IMG/VR virus record: IMGVR_UViG_3300020045_004789
Coordinates: 1-27,653 of that record
Origin: a virus
Lineage: Duplodnaviria > Caudoviricetes
DNA length: 27,653 nt
Strand: one strand, 5' to 3'
Shown: positions 5,709 through 21,544 of the stretch, piece after piece
Position numbering within the stretch: position 1 is the first letter of the stretch
How the letters are laid out: each line of letters starts with the position of its first letter
Position numbers and translations under genes: made by a program
The notes under the pieces: model-generated
Seen by the model: only the letters and a program-made list of their open reading frames with translations
What the model was told of the DNA's origin: nothing
The model's database searches: none

Positions 5709-8165
5709 TTATGCAACATAAGCATAAAGCCATACTGTTCCATTTGAATAGACGGTAGCTCCTGAGTAAGCAGCGTTCAAAACTTTTGTAGCAGCAGATG
5801 CACCACCACCAACCAGGTTTGTTCCGCCACCGTTGATAGTTATGTTATTTACTGCCGCCGTACCAGAGCCGTCTCTAATAACAAATGTTCTTCCTGCTAA
5901 GGCTGTAGCTGCAGGAAGCGTTACTTGTAAAACCCCCGCAGTTGTATCACAGTTAATCACATAGTCAGTTCCCAAAACTGTATAAGGAGTGTCAGCATTT
6001 GCTTTTGTTGTAATAGGAACAACCCATCCAGACGCAAATTTAATGCTTCCGGTGCCCGCTGTTAAATTAATTCTCGAGGCAGCCCCTCCAGCAGTAAAGT
6101 TCATAGCATCTGTTACGTTTTCCCCCGCACTTAACGTCATGGACCCGCTTGTGCAAGTAATAATTACATCTTTGGCTGCTGCTCCAGTTGCAACGATATT
6201 CATACCGCCACTGCTAGTAACATTGATGGAATCCGCGTTGGATTCGCCAGATGTCACATTCACTGCGCCAGCACTAGAAGACAATGTTAGATCTGCTGCC
6301 CCTGTTACAGTGAAATTTGAAGCAGTTGCAGAATCAATTGATACCGCTGCGGTAGTGTCTAGCGTAATACCACCAGTTCCCGCATCTACATCAATGCCGC
6401 CCGCTGCATTGCTAGCGTTTAACTTTATTGCATCAACCGCTCCTTCACCACCTTGTACAATGACGCTTCCGGCTGTTGAAAGAATGGTAATATCAAATGC
6501 CCCGGTGGCCGTTAAATTTGTTGCGCCAGCCGAATCCAATGACAAAACACCAGTAGAATCAACTGTAATACCACCAGTTCCTGCGTCAATGTCCATACCT
6601 CCAGCGGCATTACTTGCTATAATTCTTACTGCATCTGCGGCCGCTTGAGAAGAATCCAGATTCATTTGAAGAGCTACATCAACATCAAGACCACCCGCAG
6701 CCGCATCAATGTTAATTGCGTCTGTAGCCGCTTCGCCACCAGAAATAAGAATTGATCCAGCGGTTGAATTAACGGTAATATCAAATGCGCCTGTTGCAGT
6801 GAAGTTAGATGCTGCAGCGGCATCGAGAGAAATTGCTCCTGTTGTATCAAGAATAAATCCACTTGTGCCCGCATCCACATTGATGCCACCCGCTGCGCCA
6901 GATGCATTTATCGTGATAGCATTCACGTCCGATTCGGTTGCCTGGATATTGACACTAGAGCCTGTAGCAACGATGTCAATATCTTTGCCGGCTCCTGATC
7001 CAGTTGCCAGGATGTCTATACCGCCGGCCGTAGAAGTTAATGTGATAGAATCTGCGATGCTTTCTGTTGATTCGATCTTTACCGCTGATCCCGTCGCAGT
7101 GATTACTATGTCTTCGCCGGCTGCTGCTCCAGTAGATAATAGCTGAATCCCTCCAAGGGTAGATTCTAAATAAATGGCATCTCCAGCGCTTTCCGTAGAA
7201 ACCAGTCGAATCGAGGAGCCTGTCGCCGTAAGAGCAATATCCTCACCTCCTGTCGCTGAAGCTGCATTAATTTGAATACCGCCGACGCTCGAACTAATGA
7301 CGATAGAGTCCGCTACGTTCTCACCTGCTGTAATATTGACTGATCCAGCCGTACAAACAATGTCAATATCTTCCCCTGCTGCTCCTGCTGCGGTAACATC
7401 AATGCCCCCCGCAGACGCTATTAATTCGAGAGCATTAGCATGGTTTCTTGAAGATGTTAGGCTTAGAAGAAGGGCTACATCGACATCTAGGCCGCCTGCC
7501 GCCGCATCGATATTGATTGCATCCGTGGCCGCTTCGCCAGCGGTAATGTTGACAGCTCCCAGGGAACTCGATATGGTTGCATCAATTGCTGCGCCTGTAA
7601 CGCCGAAAGATGAAGCTGTATCAGAAGTGAGAATGTTTCCTGTTCCTACCCCGGTAGCCGCAAGATTTGTAAATGCACCTGCATTTGGTGCTGTACCGCC
7701 TATAGCAGGGGGGCTAGCTAAATTCGTTTTCAGCTTAAGAGGGGTAATTGCAGTATTGTCATTAGTACCCGTGTTAGTTTCTGCCTGTGTCGCCAGTTCA
7801 CCAATTCCCGATACAGTTTCAGACCAAGCAGGGGCACCAGCGATTGCGATCCCATCTACATAGTCTTTAATTTCTTTGACAGTTGGCACAAGAGTTAAGG
7901 AAGCAGCGTCCCCGAGTATAGTTGAGGATAATTGAACTATACCCGCCGCTGAAGTTGTAGCGTAGGCATTAGATCCAGCGTTCCATACTCCAGCAAATCC
8001 AGTAGTTGCATAAATTGTTTTTGCAGCAGAGCTCAGATCTTGCCATTGTGTTCCAGGTGGATATTGATCGTTTGTCGTTGGTGCGCGATTAGCTGAAATG
8101 AAAATTGGTCTAGAAGAGGTATTAGTAAGATTATCAAGAGGGTCTGAGGATACAAATCCTGTCAT
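5709..8165 (-). CDS. Main tail fibre protein (818 aa) with internal repeats
   Basis: T4 gp12/gp34-like motif SETVSGIGELATQAETNTGTNDNTAITPLKL; long run of ~22-23 aa Gly/Ala/Asp/Ile repeats; C-terminal TLPAA..GRTFVIRD..SNGTVW domain; SD GGAGA. Confidence 0.85.
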   Translation of the reverse strand: MTGFVSSDPLDNLTNTSSRPIFISANRAPTTNDQYPPGTQWQDLSSAAKTIYATTGFAGVWNAGSNAYATTSAAGIVQLSSTILGDAASLTLVPTVKEIKDYVDGIAIAGAPAWSETVSGIGELATQAETNTGTNDNTAITPLKLKTNLASPPAIGGTAPNAGAFTNLAATGVGTGNILTSDTASSFGVTGAAIDATISSSLGAVNITAGEAATDAINIDAAAGGLDVDVALLLSLTSSRNHANALELIASAGGIDVTAAGAAGEDIDIVCTAGSVNITAGENVADSIVISSSVGGIQINAASATGGEDIALTATGSSIRLVSTESAGDAIYLESTLGGIQLLSTGAAAGEDIVITATGSAVKIESTESIADSITLTSTAGGIDILATGSGAGKDIDIVATGSSVNIQATESDVNAITINASGAAGGINVDAGTSGFILDTTGAISLDAAAASNFTATGAFDITVNSTAGSILISGGEAATDAINIDAAAGGLDVDVALQMNLDSSQAAADAVRIIASNAAGGMDIDAGTGGITVDSTGVLSLDSAGATNLTATGAFDITILSTAGSVIVQGGEGAVDAIKLNASNAAGGIDVDAGTGGITLDTTAAVSIDSATASNFTVTGAADLTLSSSAGAVNVTSGESNADSINVTSSGGMNIVATGAAAKDVIITCTSGSMTLSAGENVTDAMNFTAGGAASRINLTAGTGSIKFASGWVVPITTKANADTPYTVLGTDYVINCDTTAGVLQVTLPAATALAGRTFVIRDGSGTAAVNNITINGGGTNLVGGGASAATKVLNAAYSGATVYSNGTVWLYAYVA

Positions 8166-8230
8166 ATAAATTCTCCATCGTACGATTGGTTAATTGTGAT
8201 CGCTAGCTAAGCGATTACGTTAATTTCTTC

Positions 8231-8290
8231 ATACGGTGGCGGGGCGTATTATACGGCCAATGACAGGACTGCGAATCCTTCTTTTCACGC
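8231..8290 (-). promoter_or_regulatory. Leader hairpins related to the capsid-leader motif
   Basis: GCGTGA-AAAGA-AGGA[TTCGCAG]TCCT and degenerate GCCGTA-TA-ATACG[CCCCGCCAC]CGTAT. Confidence 0.5.
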
Positions 8291-8298
8291 TGATTTAA

Positions 8299-8327
8299 AG
8301 CCTATCGATCTACATATTTATTAGCAA
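8299..8327 (-). promoter_or_regulatory. Putative late promoter for the fibre operon
   Basis: TTGCTA-N17-TAGGCT; 21/29 nt identical to 20020..20048. Confidence 0.6.
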
Positions 8328-8410: not shown

Positions 8411-8788
8411 ATGAGTATAGAAATAAAAGGAAAAGGTGCTGTTGGGATTGCAATATCGTACTATTCCCTACGTGGGATGGTGAGCATACCCCTTGAACCA
8501 TGTGATTACAATTTGATCTATGACAATGGACTTGTCTTATTTAGGGTTAAGGTAATCTCTTGTTCGTATAAAACGAAATATGGGATTTATTCCGCCTCTG
8601 TTAAAACCAGCGGAGGTAATCAACCTAAAACAGCAGTTAAAAAATTTAATTCCTGCTCATGCGATGGAGTTTTCATTGTCACATCCGATTTAGATATGTA
8701 TGAAATTCCATCCATTGAAATCAAATGCGGAAGACAGATTTCCCTGAATGTTTATGCTCATTACAAAGTAAATCTTGTTCCGGGTTAG
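8411..8788 (+). CDS. PD-(D/E)XK endonuclease-like protein (I-Ssp6803I / group I intron-associated family), probably catalytically degenerate
   Basis: KG..G.AI.YY...G.VSIPL...DYNLIYD...RVKVIS...SGGN...K.F...D..F...YEIP; canonical YDL and RVQVK read YNL and RVKVI. Confidence 0.65.
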   Translation: MSIEIKGKGAVGIAISYYSLRGMVSIPLEPCDYNLIYDNGLVLFRVKVISCSYKTKYGIYSASVKTSGGNQPKTAVKKFNSCSCDGVFIVTSDLDMYEIPSIEIKCGRQISLNVYAHYKVNLVPG

Positions 8789-8851
8789 CTCAGCGGTGGC
8801 AGCGGCGCCCTGTTAAGGCGTAGGTCGCAAGTTCGAATCTTGCACCCGGAG
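8779..8851 (+). tRNA. tRNA-Asn (anticodon GTT), CCA not encoded
   Basis: Acceptor TCCGGGT/ACCCGGA; anticodon arm GCGCC-CTGTTAA-GGCGT; T arm GCAAG-TTCGAAT-CTTGC; 3-bp D stem. Confidence 0.92.
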
Positions 8852-8879
8852 TTTTGTGGAAAATTTAAGGATTTTTAAT

Positions 8880-9195: not shown

Positions 9196-9393
9196 ATGAA
9201 GATAACGGCTAATAATTTTTTTATTTTTCCTGCCTTGATTTGGATTTCCTTTAATGTCATGTGGTTATATTTCAAGTATTCTGAAATGAATAAAAGATTA
9301 ATAAGAATCGAGAATGAGTTGATTTTAAATGGTATTATGCCTTCTGAATTGATCTCTAAGCCACTCTCTGATAAGGATATCCACCATTCTTAA
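9196..9393 (+). CDS. Single-TM plus short coiled-coil protein (65 aa)
   Basis: ATG 9196 after GAGGATAGG; TM followed by EMNKRLIRIENELIL, similar to the upstream ORF. Confidence 0.6.
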   Translation: MKITANNFFIFPALIWISFNVMWLYFKYSEMNKRLIRIENELILNGIMPSELISKPLSDKDIHHS

Positions 9394-9829
9394 TCAGGGT
9401 ATACATTGAAGCGCCAAGGGAAGGGACTTTACCTTTCCACCACTTACCCCATTTATTCTGACCATCTGTTCTAGCGGGGATTGCTCCTCGCTTGAATAGT
9501 TCGAAGATGACCCGGGGCACTCCTCCGTATTCGTAAACTGGGCCTTGACCTAAACCATCATTGCCTTGGAATTTAACGAGTAACTTTCCGCTGTCCTCAT
9601 CGAAATTGAATCCATAAACATTGCTACTTGGCATTTGGGCTGGAGGGACTTCTGGGACCTGAGGCGCTTCAATTGGGGTTTCTTCCTGAGCCATCTTAGC
9701 TTGTGCCAAAAATTTCAGACCCTCACGGATAAAATCTTCCACGACGCGTGCTTCTTCGTCTGTCAATTCATTAGCAGACGCTTGCACTAATTGCATATAC
9801 ATCTCCAGAAATTGAGCAAATTCGTCCAT
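9356..9829 (-). CDS. KTSC domain-containing protein
   Basis: SSNVYGFNFDEDSGKLLVKF...VYEYGGVP...SLGASMYTLIK..YPYQRV matches the KTSC pattern; acidic helical N-terminus. Confidence 0.8.
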   Translation of the reverse strand: MDEFAQFLEMYMQLVQASANELTDEEARVVEDFIREGLKFLAQAKMAQEETPIEAPQVPEVPPAQMPSSNVYGFNFDEDSGKLLVKFQGNDGLGQGPVYEYGGVPRVIFELFKRGAIPARTDGQNKWGKWWKGKVPSLGASMYTLIKNGGYPYQRVA

Positions 9830-18941: not shown

Positions 18942-19898
18942 TTATAGTCTTGCGGTTACGTTCAAACCAGAGATCCAGTTTTGGTTTGTAATCGCACGGG
19001 CAATTGCAAACTTAGCATAGAGCTGGCTGTTTTGAGCCACGCTAGATACGACATACGGAGGTCTGTAGCCTAAGATTGCAGAATAGTTATTCTGGTCGAT
19101 CTTAGCAGCAGCTTCTAGGCCATACATCGGAATAGTGTAGACTGTTGCTCCATTGAGAGAAGCTCCAGGGATTTTAGCAGCTTTAGAAGACACGAAGAAT
19201 CTAAAGCGTGATACGGAGCAATATTCTTCAGGACGCAAACCTTCTTGATTAGGATAAGCATTTTTGAGAAGAACGCCCCCAACGTTTTGAAGGTCAGGTG
19301 TGATGTCGGTTGAAGCCAAAGCGATGAATGCATCTCTAGTTGGTGCTGTGCCGAACTTCAGGCCTGCATCGATCCCTTCGAGCATTGTACGCGCATCGTT
19401 ACCAAGCAAAATTCGCTCGATGTTGTTAATATCTTTACGGTCAATCTCACTTGGCTGATCGCCGTTTACTCCCCCTACCGCGTTTATATAACTAACTGAA
19501 CTAGAATAAAGATCTCTCATTAAAAGATCTTCCTTTTCTCGTAACCATTGTCCTAATAAAGCAGTAAACTTAGTTAGTACTTTATCATTCTCATACAAAG
19601 TAACTTGTTCGTTAATTACAACTGTCTTAGCGTAGATTTCCATCGTTGCATCGACATCAGTACGTACGACAACTTCGGGAGCTGGATCAATACCAGAACC
19701 GTCGAGTTGACCACCGTCGGTAGACAGACGCTCATATCGAGACATACGTGTTGTCTTACCGATATGCGCTTCTGCATAGTGAAGATCCGCACCAAAGGAG
19801 TGGATCAGGTTAAACATTGGGGTAGACAATAAGTCTTCGCTGAACTGTAAAGGAAGTTCAGGAGCCATATTGTTAATATTTGTGATGCCATTGGCCAT
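18942..19898 (-). CDS. Major capsid protein, N4-gp56-like (318 aa)
   Basis: GKTTRMSRYERL motif, size, position after the scaffold; ATG 19898 follows SD AGGTG by 6 nt (preferred over GTG 19907). Confidence 0.85.
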   Translation of the reverse strand: MANGITNINNMAPELPLQFSEDLLSTPMFNLIHSFGADLHYAEAHIGKTTRMSRYERLSTDGGQLDGSGIDPAPEVVVRTDVDATMEIYAKTVVINEQVTLYENDKVLTKFTALLGQWLREKEDLLMRDLYSSSVSYINAVGGVNGDQPSEIDRKDINNIERILLGNDARTMLEGIDAGLKFGTAPTRDAFIALASTDITPDLQNVGGVLLKNAYPNQEGLRPEEYCSVSRFRFFVSSKAAKIPGASLNGATVYTIPMYGLEAAAKIDQNNYSAILGYRPPYVVSSVAQNSQLYAKFAIARAITNQNWISGLNVTARL

Positions 19899-19934
19899 GA
19901 TTAACACCTATTTCAAGTGTTTAGTTCTAATTCT

Positions 19935-20012
19935 GTTGTTTGCGAGACAACTAAATCAGCTACACTTGCGAAGGTGTTAATCAGCAGGAGGCTAGCGACG
20001 CCGTATATCAGC
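19935..20012 (-). promoter_or_regulatory. Three tandem GCTGAT + hairpin (TCGCWA loop) units in the capsid leader
   Basis: Units 19986-20012, 19961-19985 and 19935-19960, with different but paired stems. Confidence 0.75.
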
Positions 20013-20019
20013 TTTTTTT

Positions 20020-20048
20020 AGCTTATCAACCTAAATATTTTATGACAA
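20020..20048 (-). promoter_or_regulatory. Putative late promoter for the capsid operon
   Basis: TTGTCA-N17-TAAGCT; predicted start site immediately before the first GCTGAT unit. Confidence 0.65.
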
Positions 20049-20053
20049 TAAGA

Positions 20054-20782
20054 CTATCTTCCACCGCTCTTCATCGTGCGTTGCATTCTAGCCCAGTTAT
20101 CTTGCCGTCTCTTCTCATCGAGCATCATCGGTGCTGAATCTGTCGTCTGAGTAGTGCCTCCTACCGCCATAGATTGAGGCTTATTAAAGTTCTTCTCTGC
20201 CGATTTTTGATCTTTCTTGGAGTTAGGATTAGGCACGAACCTCTTTACAGCCTTATAGATTGCTGCCCATTTGTCATATCCATCCGGTAAATGCTTATAA
20301 GGAGCCGCTACCTCCGGATAATGATACTCAAGATAGTCCAGATTCTCAGTGTTGCATACTTGATCGAAGTCGGAGAAATTAGCTACTAAGCGTTGAGGGA
20401 ACTCCTGCTGCTCTCTTAGACGCTTTTCCTCTTCATACTGACGATCGCGCTTAGCCATCATCTCTTCGACACGCTTATCAATCTTCTGCTCTTCGGTTAG
20501 CTCTTCAGCTTCTTGGTGTACATTCTGTTGAGAAGGCTTATTGAGCAACGATTCCATTGCAGCTTTAAGGGCGGCTATCTCTTCGGCTTTCTTAGCCGCT
20601 TCTCGTTCTGCAAGTTCTTTGGCTTTTCTATCTTGCTCTCGCGCTTCCCGGAACTTTTTCCAATTAATTTGCTCTGGAGTTTCTTGATTTGGTTCAACAC
20701 TCTTTTTTTCAGTGGCATTTAAATTATTCTCTTGCACGTTTTGTTTTACTTCTTCTACCTTAGTGTTAACAACTTCATCCAT
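20054..20782 (-). CDS. Capsid scaffolding protein (242 aa)
   Basis: Charged coiled coil (NWKKFREAREQDRK...), directly upstream of the capsid gene; SD AAGGAG. Confidence 0.75.
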   Translation of the reverse strand: MDEVVNTKVEEVKQNVQENNLNATEKKSVEPNQETPEQINWKKFREAREQDRKAKELAEREAAKKAEEIAALKAAMESLLNKPSQQNVHQEAEELTEEQKIDKRVEEMMAKRDRQYEEEKRLREQQEFPQRLVANFSDFDQVCNTENLDYLEYHYPEVAAPYKHLPDGYDKWAAIYKAVKRFVPNPNSKKDQKSAEKNFNKPQSMAVGGTTQTTDSAPMMLDEKRRQDNWARMQRTMKSGGR

Positions 20783-20794
20783 CTGTGACTCCTT

Positions 20795-21073
20795 ATGTCT
20801 GATTTAGATATTGCTGAAAAAATCAAAGATTCTCAAGAGAAATTGCAAGAAGATTTATCACATTACAGGAGAACATTGTATTATTTGGGAGCGAACGTTC
20901 CTATTCAAGTATTGTGTTTACCAAAAACTCTGGAGACATTACTGATTAACGACGGCTGTCTTCGTGTCTATGATCTTATCAATAGAGACTTTACTAAAAT
21001 CAAAGGCATCGGTAGTACCCGGCTCGCACTCCTTACATCCCGCCTTGACGAGTTTCTCTCTATTAGCGTTTAG
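20795..21073 (+). CDS. RNA polymerase alpha subunit C-terminal domain-like (HhH) protein
   Basis: PIQVLCLPKTLETLLINDGCLRVYDLINRDFTKIKGIGSTRLALL follows the alpha-CTD pattern I..L.L......L...G...V.DL....KI.G.G. Confidence 0.7.
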   Translation: MSDLDIAEKIKDSQEKLQEDLSHYRRTLYYLGANVPIQVLCLPKTLETLLINDGCLRVYDLINRDFTKIKGIGSTRLALLTSRLDEFLSISV

Positions 21074-21544
21074 ATATTCTATCTCCGAAAGATGATCAAA
21101 ATTGTTTTCTTTACGGATTTGATGCCAAAAGTTTTTATTGAAGAAAGCATCACACCAACCTTTAGTCCTCTCCCATTTCTTTGCAACTACTTGTGCTTCC
21201 GAGATTGCAGCCATAACTTTCGCAGGGGGGAGGGACCAGATAAATTTGAGAGTATCTTTGGCCTTATTGTATAGAAATACGGCTTGTTCTGGTCTGGGAC
21301 TTGGCATATAGGGATAGGAATAGAACTTTTGGCGGACGATACCTTGGATGAGTGGGTCGCTTGCTCTCACCATTACCACGAAGAATTCAGGCTCGTCGAT
21401 GATATTTAAATGGGTATGAGCGCTTTCCATTAATTGCTTATGGAGATCATGCATCTGCCCTTCGGCTACTTCCCTACCATCATATAGAGAAGAATCCGAT
21501 TGAGCTTTAAGAGATAGCTCACCAGCAGTTTTACGACGCTTCAT
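20939..21544 (-). CDS. Hypothetical phage protein (201 aa)
   Basis: TAATG coupling to the upstream gene; globular composition; in the head operon. Confidence 0.75.
   Translation of the reverse strand: MKRRKTAGELSLKAQSDSSLYDGREVAEGQMHDLHKQLMESAHTHLNIIDEPEFFVVMVRASDPLIQGIVRQKFYSYPYMPSPRPEQAVFLYNKAKDTLKFIWSLPPAKVMAAISEAQVVAKKWERTKGWCDAFFNKNFWHQIRKENNFDHLSEIEYLNANREKLVKAGCKECEPGTTDAFDFSKVSIDKIIDTKTAVVNQ

Follow-up and report, generated by a model that had tools for sequence, protein, structure and literature searches.

The leader of the major capsid gene in a 27.7-kb virus record (hereafter the window, meaning the whole stretch of 27,653 nt that was analyzed) is very probably a translational control element with two alternative folds. 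In one, three tandem units of ~25 nt each form a mini-pseudoknot; in the other, the second unit pairs with the Shine-Dalgarno sequence (SD) and start of the capsid gene. The element is a new RNA motif that works like known anti-SD switches and phage operators, and it is a member of no family tested. It probably switches translation on when a protein binds it. As a tentative extension of this reading, a family of double-stranded DNA phages may sense unassembled scaffold protein via the ~25-nt pseudoknot, with one module wired in two ways. If this is true, tandem units combined with an anti-SD activate the capsid gene and a second late operon while a lone unit at an open SD represses a scaffold-capsid operon, and the motif would let RNA sense the state of assembly and thereby set the stoichiometry of virion proteins.

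At the RNA level, the way in which tailed phages balance capsid against scaffold is poorly defined. Because the element offers an exact site of ~25 nt, two folds each with compensatory change, and a natural swap of polarity, a reporter and a single purified protein would be enough to test this question. The motif occurs widely, in hundreds of uncultured phages (IMG/VR has 241 and 535 capsid relatives), and is a candidate for one of the smallest ON switches that respond to a protein.

The Window and Its Relatives

The window encodes a terminase, a P22-like portal, a putative scaffold protein, and a major capsid protein of the N4-gp56 family. For clade A, 80 of 241 viral (IMG/VR) and 80 of 252 metagenomic capsid homologues were joined by five genome loci, making 165; six were dropped, and the 159 usable leaders comprise 105 that are non-redundant, including that of the window (an earlier subset had n = 72). 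For clade B, in which the capsid is ~40% identical to that of the window, 80 of 535 IMG/VR matches were taken, giving 66 non-redundant leaders.

18942..19898, minus strand: major capsid protein of the N4-gp56 family, 318 aa (TIGR04387, 85.7 bits against a cut-off of 60; phrog_1357)
20054..20782, minus strand: putative scaffold protein, 242 aa, so labeled from its position between the portal and capsid genes
20939..21544, minus strand: 201-aa protein of no known family, present in 11/11 clade A and 10/10 clade B genomes
5709..8165, minus strand: 818-aa probable virion gene, presumably tail-fiber-like, under the second leader; homologues in 11/11 genomes

Profile searches returned no family match for the putative scaffold, which is kept in 11/11 clade A and 10/10 clade B genomes. 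The 201-aa protein received no assignment in PDB, PHROG, or Pfam, an atlas search for it was also empty, and the 818-aa gene has no family match above the cut-off. No relative of the capsid was found among 50,697 GenBank phage records (INPHARED), and none in PLSDB. The clade A contigs L083-L087 are filed in MAGs of Paceibacterota, Legionellaceae, Nitrososphaeraceae, and Nitrospiraceae, a placement that is probably mis-binning and no guide to the host, since the taxa are unrelated and one contig, at 37.9 kb, has the length of a whole phage. Capsid matches at L086 3001-4229, L538 5001-6331, and L541 2297-3644 span 280-400 nt beyond the gene, which suggests insertions such as introns.

A Tandem Array of Mini-pseudoknots

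The capsid leader of the window consists of three ~25-nt units, in each of which the 5' segment pairs with the unit's own loop.

20020..20048, minus strand: predicted sigma70-type promoter (-35 box at 20043-20048, 17-nt spacer, -10 box at 20020-20025), weak alone (8/12)
19990..20013, minus strand: unit 1 mini-pseudoknot, outside the OFF rod (unit model, 15.6 bits)
19962..19986, minus strand: unit 2 mini-pseudoknot, the switching unit (knot and anti-SD comparisons, unit model)
19935..19961, minus strand: unit 3 mini-pseudoknot, with an A-A mismatch here at the outer knot pair (unit model, 31.7 bits)
19972..19983, minus strand: anti-SD/anti-start strand inside unit 2 (cognate duplex, -16.8 kcal/mol)
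19915..19920, minus strand: pre-SD strand, pairing with the unit-2 3' arm (19962-19967) in the OFF rod (fold of the window leader)
19903..19921, minus strand: local SD hairpin (-5.7 kcal/mol, z -1.06)
19898..19909, minus strand: SD, spacer, and A of the start codon (capsid AUG with its A at 19898; SD AGGUG at 19905-19909)

As defined by covariation, a unit has a knot helix of 4-5 bp (often with one bulged base), a linker of 3-8 nt, a stem of 4-6 bp, and a loop of 7 nt, with the consensus NRC(W)G, linker, and 4-6-bp stem closing the loop YUCGYNA. We take this loop to resemble an anticodon loop with a U-turn, a presumed geometry. What a reading made earlier from the sequence alone (the sequence-only reading) had described as a hairpin array is thus a repeat indeed, but one whose units are mini-pseudoknots rather than plain hairpins, as covariation between loop and 5' segment indicates.

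Evidence for the knot comes from 52 units picked on invariant letters and stem only, with the two freely varying knot columns left out of the selection. These columns are Watson-Crick in 52/52 (39 GC, 13 AU) and 46/52 (28 GC, 13 AU, four UA, one CG), and 0/500 shuffles reach the score. In an automatic set of 144 units from 64/72 leaders, knot pairing was 83% and 67% versus 56% and 33%, and a loop matches its own upstream segment in 44/73 informative cases as compared with 5/73 for that of the next unit. At least two units occur in 86/105 clade A leaders (about eight in shuffles) and in 58/66 clade B leaders (again about eight when shuffled), in the latter mostly without the bulge. Among 47 hand-picked clade B units, a selection that favors structure, the varying knot pairs form in 44/47 and 44/47, and the otherwise fixed G-C knot pair flips once to C-G. 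The core letters of the units are near-invariant and unit 1 is retained although it lies outside the rod, as would be expected of a binding site.

The array extends to capsids only 31-37% identical to that of the window (L537-L539). A pattern scan of IMG/VR for units, through which the clade B capsid was found, gave at least 121 stretches, at least 41 of them distinct, and among the matches listed clear arrays stand only before capsid genes of the N4-gp56 family. The leaders L403 (9840-9940), L430 (9830-9928), and L527 carry at least four near-identical units with a period of ~24 nt, suggesting recent expansion by slippage. A clade A subgroup (L061, L063, L068, L079, L080, L086, L132, L157, L159, L161, and L163) has a two-unit leader in which the last unit has a variant knot yet still bears the anti-SD.

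An Alternative Fold That Buries the Start Site

The sequence-only reading had reported that 12 nt within unit 2 exactly complement the SD through the A of the AUG, and this is confirmed: 19972-19983 (minus strand) and 19898-19909 are the sole two matches in the window, whereas 100 dinucleotide shuffles gave a mean of 0.00, and a repeat scan of the window also found the pair as an inverted repeat. In both directions, the cognate duplex outscores each of the 71 non-cognate pairings. The 12-mer takes in the 5' segment, linker, 5' stem arm, and first loop bases of unit 2; because it spans the pairing strands of that unit, the unit-2 fold and the SD pairing are mutually exclusive, as had also been proposed. 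The minimum free energy (MFE) fold of 19880-20015 is a long rod with the 12-nt helix at its base (-43.1 kcal/mol, z -4.36, equaled by 0/200 shuffles), capped by the unit 3 hairpin and with the 5' segment of unit 3 sequestered.

In 72 clade A leaders, cognate OFF pairing was -13.3 kcal/mol as compared with -9.9 for non-cognate pairing (0/20000 permutations), with 64/72 beating the median and 36/72 standing out from shuffles at p up to 0.05; the anti-SD donor in this set is mostly the second-last unit. The SD is paired long-range in 94/105 clade A leaders versus 27% of shuffles. In independent sister pairs on the capsid tree, a leader's own pairing beats the swapped one in 47/52 and is worse in two (43/52 with an SD-only target), to be read beside a control donor that also leaned cognate (34 versus 17, p 0.024, median -1.1). 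In clade B, the 3' arm of the last unit pairs with the SD region. A fixed-window anti-SD test there was not significant (22 versus 11, p 0.08) and became stronger once anchored on the last unit, with cognate pairing better in 29/33 sister pairs, an anchor for which at least two of 66 rows used a false unit overlapping the target; the control using the previous unit gave 8 versus 15.

Compensatory changes in homologous leaders, named beforehand as the check on the proposal, are therefore present for both folds, and the complementarity does not lapse in relatives. The full 12 nt is particular to this phage, with relatives using shorter, shifted registers of the same unit. Of the riboswitch-like switch first envisaged, the two states survive while nothing points to a small-molecule ligand. 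The local hairpin suggested as a second mask of the SD is present at 19903-19921 but is unremarkable and was rejected as a conserved feature, with local SD pairing of at least 0.4 in 5/105 leaders and a median local MFE of -3.2 versus -3.6 in shuffles. It is a by-product, both its strands being complementary to the two unit-2 arms.

These comparisons bear on whether the repeats might instead be a repeated operator acting at the DNA level, or chance. Comparison of sense with antisense folding (57/105 clade A and 34/66 clade B leaders) did not reveal the strand and so leaves room for such a view; that letters change while pairing stays, that spacing varies, and that the pairing partner is the SD make it extremely unlikely.

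Folding Order and the Cost of the ON State

From the predicted promoter, which is absent from the output of a consensus promoter scan, transcription of the window leader would start near 20013, at unit 1. Among 103 leaders examined, the first unit starts 6-7 nt past the best -10 box in 49 of the 85 scoring at least 13, and promoter scores of at least 15 occur in 22% of leaders versus 3.5% when shuffled. With transcription beginning at unit 1, the three mini-pseudoknots could fold before the SD is made. Unbound RNA would then refold to the rod, with unit 2 on the SD and start and the unit 3 5' segment sequestered, a fold argued for by covariation and presumably repressive. A multivalent ligand holding the knots would keep the anti-SD occupied, so that capsid is made.

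In the 88/105 leaders in which units 2 and 3 were located, locking them lowered the median cost of opening the ribosome-binding site (RBS) from 13.6 to 5.7 kcal/mol, with a drop of more than 2 in 81/88; opening in the locked state still costs more than 4 kcal in 70/88 (8.0 in the window), and SD accessibility fell on locking in 9/88. An ON state of hairpins only, knot energy excluded, lies a median of 18.8 kcal/mol above the rod (-10.0 versus -38.0 in the window), and the knot helices, taken as isolated duplexes, add only 2-5 kcal each. Given this large gap and small gain, the ON state needs either kinetics or strong multivalent binding. Prefix folding indicates that the rod forms only once the downstream strands exist, and the barrier without knots is ~2.5 kcal, in two calculations that both ignore pseudoknots.

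Kinetics could in principle suffice without any ligand, if knots folding during transcription delayed the rod and allowed a short burst of translation per transcript. The early transcription of the units, the dependence of the rod on downstream strands, and an energy gap that favors eventual collapse all agree with such a timer, for which the leader of the MS2 maturation gene, as described in PMC4615214, is a precedent. Yet it is rather improbable, as the barrier without knots is so low and as the timer leaves unexplained unit 1 and the further upstream copies outside the rod, the near-invariant core letters, and the lone unit without an anti-SD in group C (below). It would also lower output, a poor fit for the most abundant virion protein.

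A static repression relieved by transcript context (for example, ribosomes completing the scaffold gene on a read-through transcript, RNase processing, or a later start), with the knots serving stability or processing, is very unlikely. No terminator separates the scaffold stop (20054) from the leader, and T4 hides SDs in stems on early transcripts (as described in PMC3014915). Nevertheless, the short transcript carries the anti-SD too, since the predicted start is upstream of it; the anti-SD is always inside a unit, making the folds exclusive; and in many clade B phages the scaffold stop is 167 to 1077 nt upstream.

A Second Leader and an Opposite Arrangement

The 818-aa gene has a leader of the same kind.

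8299..8327, minus strand: predicted promoter of the second leader (read from the sequence)
8265..8291, minus strand: unit a, with no bulged base (unit model, 11.9 bits)
8232..8258, minus strand: unit b, whose 3' arm pairs beside the SD at 8173-8176 (unit model, 12.9 bits)

Its fold buries the SD and start (-43.4 kcal/mol, z -3.71), and cognate anti-SD pairing across 12 leaders was equaled in 30/20000 permutations. A first look gave 0 unit-model matches in 21 loci and none by eye before seven N-terminal homologues; arrays before the 818-aa homologue were then counted by eye in 7/11 genomes, in 4/10 loci holding the gene, and in further records. The distribution of this leader is patchy. Together, the capsid and 818-aa leaders may constitute a regulon sharing the unit. 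Just upstream of the second promoter, an ORF with a weak PD-(D/E)XK-like match (8411-8852, plus strand) and, directly after it, a tRNA-Asn(GTT) run against the direction of the late genes.

A quite different arrangement is found in group C, 33 loci in which the capsid gene lies 2-63 nt after the scaffold gene and has no array of its own. In 20/33 of these loci, versus 1.2 when shuffled, a single unit has its end 9-21 nt ahead of the scaffold start, some misses having doubtful start codons, and the outer knot pair, unused in detection, is Watson-Crick in 13/20. There is no anti-SD in group C, where opening costs 2.6 kcal/mol versus 12.0 in clade A and cognate pairing is no better than swapped (6664/10000 permutations). 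Conversely, units stand at the scaffold start itself in 3/78 clade A and 0/51 clade B cases. By its placement, the lone unit at an open scaffold SD looks like a repressor site. The ribosome has a footprint on the mRNA, which a bound knot at this unit would be predicted to overlap. A second hairpin stands 40-75 nt before the scaffold start, upstream of the unit, in L477, L482, L510, L523, L518, and L468; its loop could pair with a 5' segment in mirror order, or with the loop of the unit.

Relation to Known Elements

Translational ON riboswitches, including those with tandem aptamers, share the logic of aptamer versus anti-SD, and like them the element has a conserved, structured 5' leader with covariation and a platform mutually exclusive with the conserved fold. 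We take the strand order of the unit to be like that of the fluoride (crcB) aptamer pseudoknot, from which it differs in leaving no room for the second hairpin, in its virion-assembly gene context, and in the lack of an Rfam match. On the window, Rfam 15, with its riboswitches, leaders, GP20-a/b, and type III antitoxins, gave only a tRNA at gathering score and only miRNA/snoRNA noise at E up to 10. On 40 related loci it gave nothing on the leader, the matches being one tRNA and one marginal int-alpA match away from it (L023 2484-2545, 39.8 versus 35.8 bits), probably chance. A literature search whose coverage left out most subscription papers found no description of the element.

Among candidate structured RNAs from IMG/VR that lie within 25 nt of the same capsid family, DNAVirus_3698 (85 nt, 180 sequences, 37 before capsid_maj_N4, two covarying bases) and DNAVirus_865 (62 nt, four before capsid_maj_N4) may overlap this motif; compared by description only, their rows in PMC10690425 (Fremin 2023) give no pseudoknot, array, or switch. 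In the MS2/Levivirus maturation-gene 5' UTR, as described in PMC4615214, an upstream strand likewise buries the SD long-range and an earlier-folding structure sequesters that strand. A long-range anti-SD helix in the final fold is found here as well, whereas the MS2 case, in the same account, concerns an RNA phage, a low-copy protein, and a single metastable hairpin without repeats or ligand.

The T4 gene 32 operator, as described in PMC3014915, is also a leader pseudoknot in a phage mRNA that is bound by a phage protein and acts on translation, and it resembles the placement in group C. Features of its own in that account are one classical pseudoknot, repression only, no anti-SD, and an SSB gene; here, by contrast, 2-4 knots of ~25 nt stand in tandem, each with 0-1 nt before its last strand, the anti-SD rod excludes them, and the predicted effect is to activate the capsid. 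A pseudoknot upstream of the RBS is common to both, with other loop lengths in the present motif. The open A/U-rich RBS of the gene 32 type is absent from clade A, where the RBS is buried, and only that of group C is open.

Candidate Ligands

The opposite placements constrain what the ligand may be. A phage protein is favored over a small molecule because of the repressor-like placement in group C, and the non-tail genes common to clades A and B include those for the portal, the 201-aa protein, the scaffold, and the capsid. Free scaffold protein is the likeliest single ligand because it explains both polarities, an assignment made with some reserve. An excess of scaffold would turn on capsid in clades A and B; in group C, with its coupling of capsid to scaffold, binding of the unit would turn the pair off, so that both wirings would limit unassembled scaffold. 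The P22 scaffold (gp8) has been implicated in translational autoregulation (bioRxiv 10.1101/2022.12.13.520362). The likeness to the present phage, with its P22-like portal, would be one of role in post-transcriptional control, and the available text of that account gives no RNA site and no activation of coat translation. The putative scaffold has no known RNA-binding domain; in its N-terminal helix N40 is 90% and R45 83% conserved across 41 scaffolds, a lead only.

More doubtful as ligands are the 201-aa protein, some other phage protein, and a host protein. A metabolite or the 201-aa protein fits less well because either would activate capsid in clades A and B and switch it off in group C. 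Occurrence of the 201-aa protein is not tied to that of the capsid array, the protein being in 23 loci scored without an array and 15 with one; it is kept as a weaker candidate because group C has units elsewhere. Autogenous binding by the capsid in the style of gene 32 would amount to positive feedback in clades A and B, and the capsid is less fitting as ligand because it would there feed forward on itself.

The same reversal of polarity weighs against a small-molecule riboswitch in which every knot would bind a metabolite, ion, or second messenger as an aptamer, with cooperativity arising from the tandem copies. The compact pseudoknot, conserved core, tandem copies, and classic anti-SD platform, common to two operons, are what such a switch would offer; but a single signal would then activate capsid in clades A and B and, by placement, shut it off in group C, few unpaired bases are conserved, the bulged base is optional, and Rfam gave no match. 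Known riboswitches are rare in phages, according to PMC5473149, and this reading is quite improbable. A protein-bound switch remains preferred, and two further phage proteins were tried and rejected as its ligand. A KTSC-domain protein (9356-9829, minus strand), considered as a universal ligand, is in 11/11 clade A genomes but in 0/18 long clade B loci and 0/17 clade B records (13 near-complete), the records having been screened in one search without a positive control. A 92-aa ORF that lies, antisense, between the scaffold gene and that of the 201-aa protein (20795-21073, plus strand) is in 0/18 clade B loci. The KTSC protein has an acidic helical N terminus and a basic/aromatic insert, and is a core protein in clade A only. 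The 92-aa ORF has no family match and is conserved in clade A, and we presume a likeness to the C-terminal helix-hairpin domain of the RNA polymerase alpha subunit.
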